This document shows positions 1,107 through 1,414 of a stretch of 14,579 bases of DNA, one piece after another. Origin of the DNA: a virus (lineage: Duplodnaviria > Heunggongvirae > Uroviricota > Caudoviricetes); IMG/VR virus record IMGVR_UViG_2529293240_000014; one strand, written 5' to 3'. Each line of letters starts with the position of its first letter. The first letter of the stretch is position 1. Under the pieces are notes generated by a model. That model did not search any database and was not told where the DNA came from. It was given only the letters and a program-made list of their open reading frames with translations. Both the position numbers and the translations under genes were made by a program.

Positions 1107-1178
1107 GAGCGGCAGCGGGAATCGAACCCGCATCATCAGCCTGTAAGGCTGAGGTAATAGCCATTATACGATGCCCGC
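1107..1178 (-). tRNA. tRNA-like sequence, probably degenerate (loop CTTACAG, nominal anticodon UAC)
   Basis: Good T-arm (GCGGG-TTCGATT-CCCGC) and anticodon arm (TCAGC-CTTACAG-GCTGA). The 3' acceptor strand TGCCGCT cannot pair with 5' GCGGGCA without a 1-nt indel. Confidence 0.35.
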
Positions 1179-1181
1179 ATA

Positions 1182-1257
1182 TGGTGCCGACTACCGGAAT
1201 CGAACTGGTGACCTGATGATTACAAGTCAGTTGCTCTGCCTGCTGAGCTAAGTCGGC
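1182..1257 (-). tRNA. tRNA-like gene with non-canonical anticodon arm (loop contains U-GUA-A / UGU); identity unresolved
   Basis: Acceptor stem GCCGACT/AGTCGGC, discriminator A, encoded CCA, D-arm GCTC...GAGC, T-loop TTCGATT. Anticodon region AACTGACTTGTAATCATCAGG forms only a 4-bp stem with a 10-nt loop, and the T-stem has one mismatch. Confidence 0.45.
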
Positions 1258-1259
1258 GC

Positions 1260-1336
1260 TGGCCCACCACCGAGAACTCGAACCTCGCACCGTCAACTTA
1301 GAAGGTTGATGCTCTATCCGGATGAGCTAGCGGTGG
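1260..1336 (-). tRNA. tRNA-Arg (anticodon UCU, reads AGA), phage argN/argO-type
   Basis: Reverse complement folds as a cloverleaf: acceptor CCACCGC/GTGGTGG (one G-U), D-arm GCTC/GAGC, anticodon stem TCAAC/GTTGA with loop CTTCTAA, T-loop TTCGAGT, encoded CCA. Confidence 0.75.
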
Positions 1337-1337
1337 T

Positions 1338-1414
1338 TGGTGGCCCTTGCTGGACTTGAACCAGCGACCTGGCGATTATGAGTCGCTCGCTCTGACCAAC
1401 TGAGCTAAAGGGCC
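1338..1414 (-). tRNA. tRNA with CAU anticodon, ileX/ileZ-like (tRNA-Ile2, lysidine type, reads AUA); Met cannot be excluded
   Basis: Reverse complement GGCCCTTTAGCTCAGTTGGTCAGAGCGAGCGACTCATAATCGCCAGGTCGCTGGTTCAAGTCCAGCAAGGGCCACCA. Perfect acceptor stem, loop CTCATAA, T-arm GCTGG-TTCAAGT-CCAGC; close to E. coli ileX as recalled. Confidence 0.8.

Follow-up and report, generated by a model that had tools for sequence, protein, structure and literature searches.

Why does a lambdoid prophage keep, between its late antiterminator gene and its lysis genes, four tandem transfer RNA (tRNA) genes of which two depart from the canonical cloverleaf? The question is raised by a 14,579-nucleotide stretch of viral DNA (IMG/VR record IMGVR_UViG_2529293240_000014, Caudoviricetes; hereafter the window), in which a reading made from the letters alone (the sequence-only reading) had placed four tRNA-like genes at positions 1107-1414, two of them canonical and two either decaying pseudo-tRNAs or non-canonical tRNAs. 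ARAGORN reproduced these coordinates, finding four minus-strand tRNA genes that span exactly 1107-1414, and all four passed the Rfam RF00005 gathering score of 29 bits. Along the minus strand they are a tRNA-Ile2-like gene with a CAU anticodon and an encoded CCA, homologous to ileZ and ileX (1338..1414; 70.5 bits), an argN-like tRNA-Arg(UCU) gene (1260..1336; 48.0 bits), a tRNA-Thr(UGU) gene derived from host thrU (1182..1257; 59.5 bits) and a putative pseudo-tRNA derived from host glyT, which the predictors call tRNA-Val(UAC) (1107..1178; 48.5 bits). Flanked by Pfam Q-like and holin genes, the array has the gene order of the lambdoid or Shiga toxin (Stx)-phage-type cluster that had been proposed for it, and in itself is nothing unusual among the tRNA clusters known from lambdoid late regions. 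Taken as a whole, we consider it moderately likely that the locus is best explained as such a cluster in which a working Thr allele would escape defence nucleases beside a dead or dying copy of glyT.

The identities and origins of the two aberrant genes could be read directly from alignment to E. coli K-12, where the third gene is thrU with four substitutions and the fourth is glyT with four changes; this ancestry in the host thrU/glyT operon had not been recognised by the sequence-only reading. The spacer TAT between the two genes (1179-1181) consists of the first nucleotide after host thrU and the last two before host glyT (L004), and therefore points to capture of thrU-tyrU-glyT with tyrU cleanly deleted, which fits a precise 209-nt deletion that would have taken out tyrU at or after capture of the host operon. 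An array relative covering at least 80% of the query was found in 499 of 5426 complete E. coli genomes, and an IMG/VR scan for the Thr-Gly junction gave at least 120 loci; variant alleles were scanned exhaustively and wild-type copies were taken only from these listed loci, so frequencies within the locus set are biased. Among the matches listed, Thr was identical to host thrU in at least 82 loci and carried U16C/U20C alone in at least 23, and Gly, across 124 related arrays, was almost always identical to host glyT, with a highly variable downstream flank. The usual layouts were Ile-Lys-Thr-Gly or Ile-Arg-Thr-Gly. A strongly constrained, host-identical pair is therefore the default, from which the window versions are derived, and in most relatives these Thr and Gly copies would supply readers of ACA and GGA.

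Relative to thrU, the window Thr gene carries U16C (position 1242) and U20C (1238) in the D-loop and G42U (1216) and U43C (1215) in the anticodon stem. In the ARAGORN drawing A27.C43 and C28.U42 are unpaired and the anticodon stem is down to three Watson-Crick pairs; a stem defect had thus been rightly noticed earlier, but the 4-bp stem with a 10-nt loop then described is an alternative register, and the register homologous to thrU is the one with three pairs. The 3'-strand CNG motif has changed from C40A41G42 to C40A41U42 and the 5'-strand C28U29G30 is intact, so that the alteration is one-sided. The gene keeps the UGU anticodon, the threonyl-tRNA synthetase (ThrRS) identity elements G1-C72, C2-G71, G35, U36 and A73, and an encoded CCA; its Rfam score of 59.5 bits compares with 73.8 bits for host thrU and lies near the 61.5 bits of the tRNA-Thr of phage 21, a molecule that experiment has shown to function. 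Cloverleaf registers were judged by covariance-model scores and homology instead of minimum free energy (MFE) folding, as single-sequence MFE folding was uninformative for this purpose: it mis-folds genuine host tRNAs, and thrU itself has a native A52.C62 mismatch.

All four of these differences sit on nuclease determinants that have been defined by experiment (PMC12445682, PMC12409363). Lambda-infected cells are killed by the OLD nuclease of phage P2, mainly because it cleaves host tRNA-ThrU behind C28 and C40 within a paired CNG motif of the anticodon stem, and phage tRNA-Thr(UGU) molecules resist this cleavage and so rescue the cells (PMC12445682); the status of Thr(UGU) as an OLD target has been confirmed in a 2026 preprint. 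Resistance to OLD needs an altered CNG motif and a shortened stem together, the single changes U43A, G30C/C40G and C28U/G42A being insufficient, and the tRNA-Thr of phage 21, which lies at the same genomic position as the window gene, protects against P2 OLD (PMC12445682). Cleavage by AriB, the nuclease of the PARIS system, falls between positions 40 and 41 in tRNA-Thr(UGU), and in tRNA-Lys it is impaired by U16C (PMC12409363). In the window allele, G42U takes away the G of the 3'-strand CNG and leaves C28, adjoining the first OLD cleavage site, unpaired, and U43C abolishes the 27-43 pair; the two together amount to the combination of altered CNG plus shortened stem that OLD resistance needs, and U16C is the change that impaired AriB cleavage of tRNA-Lys. 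In having UGU, the ThrRS elements, an altered 3' CNG and a lost 27-43 pair, the gene shows the sequence features of the nuclease-evading tRNA-Thr(UGU) class. The window Thr gene therefore probably encodes a nuclease-escape tRNA, which, as far as its sequence allows a judgement, would be processed and aminoacylated, would work as a tRNA-Thr(UGU) and would escape Toprim tRNases, namely P2 OLD and perhaps PARIS AriB.

Independent parallels are offered by the tRNA-Thr of phage 21, in which positions 27 and 43 are G27.A43, and by the jumbo phage PBECO4 (L144, 201-276), whose thrU matches that of the host except that its entire anticodon stem has been exchanged for AUCCC/GGGAA, with A27.A43 and no CNG. 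Phage BF17 (L145, 201-356) has a host-identical thrU copy together with a diverged one. These Asteriusvirus copies all end in CAA, not CCA.

The distribution of the G42U/U43C allele was observed directly. It occurs on 12 IMG/VR contigs (mostly prophage-sized, 19-61 kb) and on two metagenome contigs besides; among 5426 complete E. coli genomes, 17 carry it, in up to three prophages each and at 30 places in all. Seven sequence backgrounds carry it, three of which are also known with the wild-type stem, and the array layouts around it include Thr-Gly alone, Ile-Lys-Thr-Gly, Ile-Thr-Arg-Gly and others; in strain CFSAN029787 it stands beside an intact Gly in one prophage and beside the 'Val' gene in two. 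A sister allele, G42C/U43C, alters the same two positions on two backgrounds. Among the Thr alleles scanned there was no copy with G42 retained and U43 changed, and no compensation in the 5' strand was seen; in a scan that left the anticodon arm unconstrained, the 42/43 change was the sole anticodon-arm variant among the matches listed. The exact Thr allele was absent from the isolated phage genomes searched (best match 97.4%) and had no match in the GTDB species-representative genomes, and the hits of a degenerate Thr pattern were limited to a fragment of a tRNA and to an actinobacterial tRNA that is unrelated.

The fourth gene differs from glyT by C35A (1144), A38G (1141), the loss of one C (between 1110 and 1111) and a change of CCA to CAA (1106). 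The lost C is one of the three in the CCC of the 3' acceptor strand, a run still complete in the copies of L003 and L125; alignment and ARAGORN agree that this is the 1-nt acceptor defect reported before for 1107-1178. Three further defects had been overlooked, namely CAA for CCA, an anticodon that is UAC and not UCC, and a G38 able to pair with C32. As drawn by ARAGORN, the acceptor has four Watson-Crick pairs, then G3.G, C2.C and G1+U, and a 3' end of U/C then CAA. C35A removes a glycyl-tRNA synthetase identity element and makes the anticodon UAC, and within the loop CUUACAG a C32-G38 pair is possible that would close the loop to 5 nt. Set against the elements of glyT (UCC, C35/C36, G1-C72, C2-G71, G3-C70, U73), the gene has C35A and has lost G3-C70, and the rest is glyT; set against those of a tRNA-Val, A35 and C36 are present, and a regular 7-bp acceptor, A73, CCA and an open 7-nt loop are not. 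Its Rfam score was 48.5 bits, as against 64.9 bits for an intact Gly. The 'Val' allele was found on one IMG/VR contig (L111) and in 8 of 5426 genomes, on one background and always beside the Thr 42/43 allele. The change of CCA to CAA was also seen alone, in the otherwise intact Gly of the unrelated Thr-Gly array L069.

The fourth gene is thus most likely a decaying copy of glyT, a pseudogene whose product, judged from these lesions, would be non-functional, and the 'tRNA-Val' given to it by the Prokaryotic Genome Annotation Pipeline (PGAP) should be treated with caution, as it almost certainly marks a broken glyT copy. The ARAGORN drawings show defects in both aberrant genes, and the earlier choice between decaying pseudo-tRNAs and non-canonical tRNAs splits between them, decay fitting the fourth gene and being implausible for Thr. 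As to history, we may speculate that C35A came first, that mistranslation of valine codons as glycine would have been harmful and that disabling mutations were then favoured. The E. coli mutators mutA and mutC are reportedly C35 anticodon mutants of glyV and glyW, as attributed to Slupska and co-workers in 1996, and the glyT C35A of the window resembles them in being a glycine tRNA with the middle base of its anticodon mutated; the mutA tRNAs are otherwise intact and mistranslate, whereas the window gene has three further disabling changes.

That the array is a mosaic could be seen directly by alignment to sister prophages. The near-isogenic prophage L125, of E. coli FDAARGOS_944, matches the window at every position from 1337 to 2613, and the eight differences between the two in 1104-2613 are all confined to the Val, Thr and Arg genes; on the other side, window 1-1500 is 99.4-100% identical to L111 (IMG/VR contig 2537561620_000012), and 522-1500 likewise to L002. 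The junction of an L111/L002-type left part with an L125-identical right part therefore implies a crossover within the Ile gene or immediately upstream of it. The left part runs from the insertion sequence (IS) that interrupts the endolysin gene, across the lysis genes, to Val, Thr and Arg, and the right part from Ile through Q and the nin region. Hypermutation of the tRNA genes was considered and ruled out, the cluster of differences being a recombination patch of L111/L002-type against L125-type segments. To judge from these alignments the tRNA array is a recombination junction between lambdoid prophages, with the conserved tRNA genes as the presumed substrates, and recombination at tRNA genes explains the movement of alleles between backgrounds.

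The prophage is clearly defective, with four IS insertions and with its endolysin and DUF1367 genes disrupted. An IS3-family element occupies 1-521 in the signal-arrest-release (SAR) endolysin gene (Pfam rve domains on the plus strand at 1-480; homology to L002 ends at 522), a second IS3-family element lies inside the DUF1367 nin-region gene (2614-3860), and an IS2-like element (10464-11794) and an IS1 (about 13489-14256) follow. This IS load is reminiscent of Shigella-like genomes. The whole window was found in no complete E. coli genome of the collection, the best match having 78% coverage at 99.7%. The Arg changes and the 'Val' gene can be put down to drift in a dead prophage; the Thr allele is older than the decay of the prophage.

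Several observations weigh against reading the Thr allele as an escape variant. The 42/43 change costs about 10 bits of covariance-model score (59.5 against 69.8), the loss of two stem pairs could impair decoding, and expression of the array in the window is presumed from its sequence. The allele is rare (17 of 5426 genomes), G42U/U43C is not among the variants reported in PMC12445682, and the 5'-strand CUG and the AriB site U36AAUC|A41 are unaltered. The P2 old gene proper is present in only 17 of 5426 E. coli genomes, which makes it an uncommon selective agent. Most Thr copies are identical to host thrU and cannot be escape variants, which means that the array does not serve escape in general. 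Finally, the allele could have arisen by templated mutation, from CCAGGUC in the Ile gene at the same positions or from the complementary CUGAUGAU in Gly, and have spread neutrally by recombination, evidently a common event in these arrays. Lys(UUU), Thr(UGU) and Asn(GUU), the targets of AriB and OLD, are among the tRNA species of related arrays, and a counter-defence role fits part of the array family, not the host-identical Thr majority.

The most serious competing explanation holds that both aberrant genes are decaying pseudo-tRNAs, the Thr 42/43 lesion being neutral or slightly deleterious and having hitch-hiked while recombination shuffled it. The four IS insertions and truncated endolysin of the window prophage, the lesions in its Arg and Gly copies, the rarity of the Thr allele, its fall in Rfam score from 69.8 to 59.5 bits and the demonstrated recombination inside the array all agree with it. 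It does not sit well with the occurrence of the Thr allele on prophage-sized contigs in arrays that are otherwise intact, Gly included, nor with seven backgrounds on which other lesions are not in excess. Random decay would also have had to strike the same two positions a second time, in G42C/U43C, and to place all four thrU differences on experimental nuclease determinants (PMC12445682, PMC12409363), and independent phage derivatives of thrU likewise lack the 27-43 pair. We regard decay of both genes as unlikely, though it deserves real weight beside the explanation that we prefer.

Less likely again, and in our view a rather poor account of the whole, is that the 42/43 alleles mark a mutational hotspot of no selective meaning, in which templated mutation or gene conversion would draw on the Ile gene or on the inverted CUGAUGAU in Gly. 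The sequences are suggestive: C42 C43 A G G U C of the Ile gene equals the CC allele over positions 42-48, the UC allele forms an 8/8 inverted repeat with Gly positions 40-47 where the wild type forms 6/8, and the same double substitution is seen on many backgrounds. Such a mechanism accounts for the origin of the alleles, not for their persistence on prophage-sized contigs; the allele is found as well where Arg, not Gly, comes after Thr (L127, L128 and L133), and a hotspot is in any case compatible with selection.

It is very improbable that the fourth gene is a working tRNA with a switched anticodon reading GUA, whether as a replacement for the OLD-sensitive tRNA-Val(UAC) or as a Val-to-Gly mistranslator. 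A35 and C36 are said, from work of the Schulman and Horowitz laboratories, to be the main valyl-tRNA synthetase identity elements, which would count for such a tRNA, as would the PGAP label tRNA-Val. In addition, tRNA-Val(UAC) is a secondary substrate of P2 OLD (PMC12445682), and the gene was found nowhere but next to the Thr escape allele, some strains having it in two of their prophages. The structure speaks the other way: the acceptor has four Watson-Crick pairs or a bulged G, CCA and A73 are missing, C32-G38 would shut the anticodon loop to 5 nt, and each of the four changes is damaging by itself, with a fall in Rfam score of 16 bits (64.9 to 48.5). Because its anticodon stem retains CNG and A37, the molecule would moreover stay OLD-sensitive. 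We give as little credence to the idea of a counter-defence cassette still under evolution, its captured host tRNA genes being refitted in turn, with thrU escaping Toprim tRNases and the glyT copy alive as a UAC tRNA with altered acceptor and CCA; that copy would then be a replacement for OLD-sensitive tRNA-Val(UAC), or a decoy for toxins (toxSAS FaRel2, GNAT) that recognise the acceptor stem and CCA end of tRNA-Gly. A Thr gene used in the shifted register, with a 4-bp stem and a 10-nt loop serving non-standard decoding such as frameshifting, is highly implausible, for although CUGA/UCAG pairing is possible and gives -23.2 against -20.3 kcal/mol for the 3-bp register (by folding that mis-folds host tRNAs), the sister CC allele gives three pairs only, homology to thrU fixes the 7-nt loop register, and we know of no functional tRNA that has a 10-nt anticodon loop together with a variable region of 3 nt.

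The first two genes, Ile and Arg, are phage-type rare-codon tRNA genes, kin of ileZ and argN, and comparison with Stx-phage genes, which the sequence-only reading had called for, showed them to be 85-89% identical to annotated ileZ and argN. Both had been described as canonical, and this very nearly holds: both fold in ARAGORN and Rfam, but Ile has an A27.C43 mismatch, common to all related arrays, and Arg has the wobbles G6.U67 and G53.U61. The Ile gene is identical to K-12 ileX at 69 of 77 positions, with stem changes compensated and an acceptor of GGCCCUU/AAGGGCC, and its sequence is unchanged in the sister prophages L125 and L003; the same gene is labelled tRNA-Ile by PGAP in E. coli genomes. 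CAU, C4-G69, C5-G68 and similarity to ileX together mark it as a tRNA-Ile2, C4-G69 and C5-G68 being TilS determinants, reportedly described as such by Ikeuchi and colleagues in 2005. The Arg gene has the UCU anticodon, a D-loop AUCCGGAUA with A20, G73, CCA and a cloverleaf, as expected of tRNA-Arg(UCU); its wobbles result from A6G and C61U, which were found only in the window and L111, not in the sister prophages, and its Rfam score is 48.0 bits as against 56.4 for the unmutated copy in L125. In L111 the Arg gene has a third lesion, CCA to CUA, besides the two common with the window. The Arg sequences suggest stepwise decay in the L111 lineage. The use of the cognate codons in a related prophage is moderate (per 1000 codons: ATA 4.8-10.2, AGA 3.9-8.8, ACA 10.4-16.2, GGA 10.0-14.2) and above the E. 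coli averages for the same codons, and therefore gives weak support to codon supply.

Across the IMG/VR loci L005-L124 the second tRNA gene, between Ile and Thr, has a hypervariable anticodon loop, Arg UCU being among its forms. The commonest form, in 54 of 124 among the matches listed, is a 'Lys' UUU with C33 and an A51.C63 mismatch, and a sub-family has loops of 5-6 nt (CAAC-[CCAGGU/UAAAU/UUAAU/UUUAU/CUUGGU]-GUUG) that ARAGORN calls Phe, Leu, Stop or '???'. Because tRNA-Lys(UUU) is the main target of PARIS AriB, the Lys form may, by analogy, be another escape isoacceptor.

Transcription of the array would be possible by two routes, Q-antiterminated late transcription and an independent array promoter. 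Upstream, on the minus strand, lie a Q-like late antiterminator gene of the DUF1133 / Phage_antitermQ type (1604..2161; PF06576 E=2e-107, PF06530 E=8e-7) and, between it and the array, a tR'-like intrinsic terminator hairpin with a T-run, identified from the sequence (1503..1531; RNAfold -18.2 kcal/mol). A sequence scan found a sigma-70 promoter-like site, TTTGCA, 18 nt and TATTAT, at 1424..1453 on the same strand, with a G+C-rich discriminator between TATTAT and the first base of tRNA-Ile. Its conservation was directly visible: TTGCA, a 17-18 nt spacer, TAT(T/C)(A/T)T, the G+C-rich stretch after it and the spacing are kept upstream of tRNA-Ile despite diverged surroundings (L001, L018, L034, L059, L068, L007), with TATTAT, TATCTT and TATCAT as variants among related arrays. 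The site is probably genuine, and its sequence suggests a promoter that would be stringently controlled and Q-independent; since the array has its own conserved promoter, both Q-dependent and independent transcription are possible. Right after the last tRNA, an 11-bp inverted repeat GTCTTTCAGTC-(24 nt)-GACTGAAAGAC at 1052-1098 (minus strand), kept in L002, L111 and L003, is followed by a small hairpin and T-run; the whole element (1025..1098, minus strand; RNAfold -21.8 kcal/mol) probably marks where a transcript of the array itself ends or is processed.

Further downstream on the minus strand, a scan gave an intrinsic terminator, GCCCGC-TTTT-GCGGGC plus T7 (883..898; RNAfold -13.7 kcal/mol), upstream of the first lysis gene, which encodes a P21-type class II holin, or pinholin (600..815; PF04971 E=3e-35). 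Translation then shows a SAR-endolysin remnant of about 31 codons, cut by the IS3-family element (505..600). Elsewhere in the window, a minus-strand gene for QueH, the epoxyqueuosine reductase of queuosine tRNA modification (5255-5941; Pfam E=2e-65), gives the prophage another function connected with tRNA, and Rfam identified a sok antitoxin RNA of a hokD-type module (5022-5197, minus strand; 117 bits) as well as isrK and a P1-type C4 antisense RNA (12302-12378 and 12403-12490, plus strand), the latter two directly upstream of an open reading frame with Ash and Rha domains (12143-13099).

Help with rare codons is the role long assigned to the tRNA genes that lambdoid and Stx phages carry beside Q. 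Work of 2024-2026 has shown that phage tRNAs can also stand in for host tRNAs destroyed by defence nucleases, and the window offers a remarkably tidy natural example: the gene of the host's sole ACA reader, copied into a prophage and changed at four positions. If the two-base stem change suffices for resistance with decoding kept, it would define a minimal escape route, and temperate coliphages would be seen to join the nuclease arms race with host-derived genes shuffled by recombination within the array.

Among known systems, the host thrU-tyrU-glyT-thrT operon is the source of genes three and four, and most prophage copies are 100% identical to its thrU and glyT; unlike that operon, the prophage arrays belong to the late region of a phage and have neither tyrU nor thrT, and the window copies have four changes each. 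The 933W-type ileZ-argN-argO cluster is like the window in having Q, pR' and tR' upstream and late genes downstream, and in its ileZ and argN kin reading AUA and AGA; the window differs in carrying thrU and glyT copies in place of argO, in its own conserved promoter and in having no stx genes after the array. Phage 21 has the same layout as the window, with Q21, pR', a terminator, tRNA-Asn, tRNA-Thr and the P21-type holin S21. Its tRNA-Thr has in common with that of the window the UGU anticodon, the lack of a 27.43 pair and a changed CNG pairing at 28-42; relative to thrU, 27 of 76 positions are changed in Thr21 and only four in the window allele, and in the window, unlike Thr21, the 3'-strand CNG alone is altered and two pairs are lost rather than one. 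Identity of the window gene with the tested phage 21 tRNA-Thr was ruled out on this count, the two being different tRNAs. The anticodon-loop-mutation hypothesis (PMC10264068) concerns the loop, whereas the window allele alters the stem. The AriB-evading tRNAs of T5 and other virulent phages (PMC11464382, PMC12409363) follow the same principle of an isoacceptor mutated at nuclease determinants, and U16C is common to T5 tRNAs and the window; compared with these evaders, the window gene belongs to a temperate prophage, is a minimal derivative of a host gene and has an unaltered AriB cleavage-site sequence. The OLD-resistant phage tRNA-Thr(UGU) class replaces host tRNA-ThrU after cleavage by P2 OLD (PMC12445682), and the sequence of the window Thr allele suggests that it is probably a new and minimal member of this recently described class of nuclease-evading phage tRNA-Thr.

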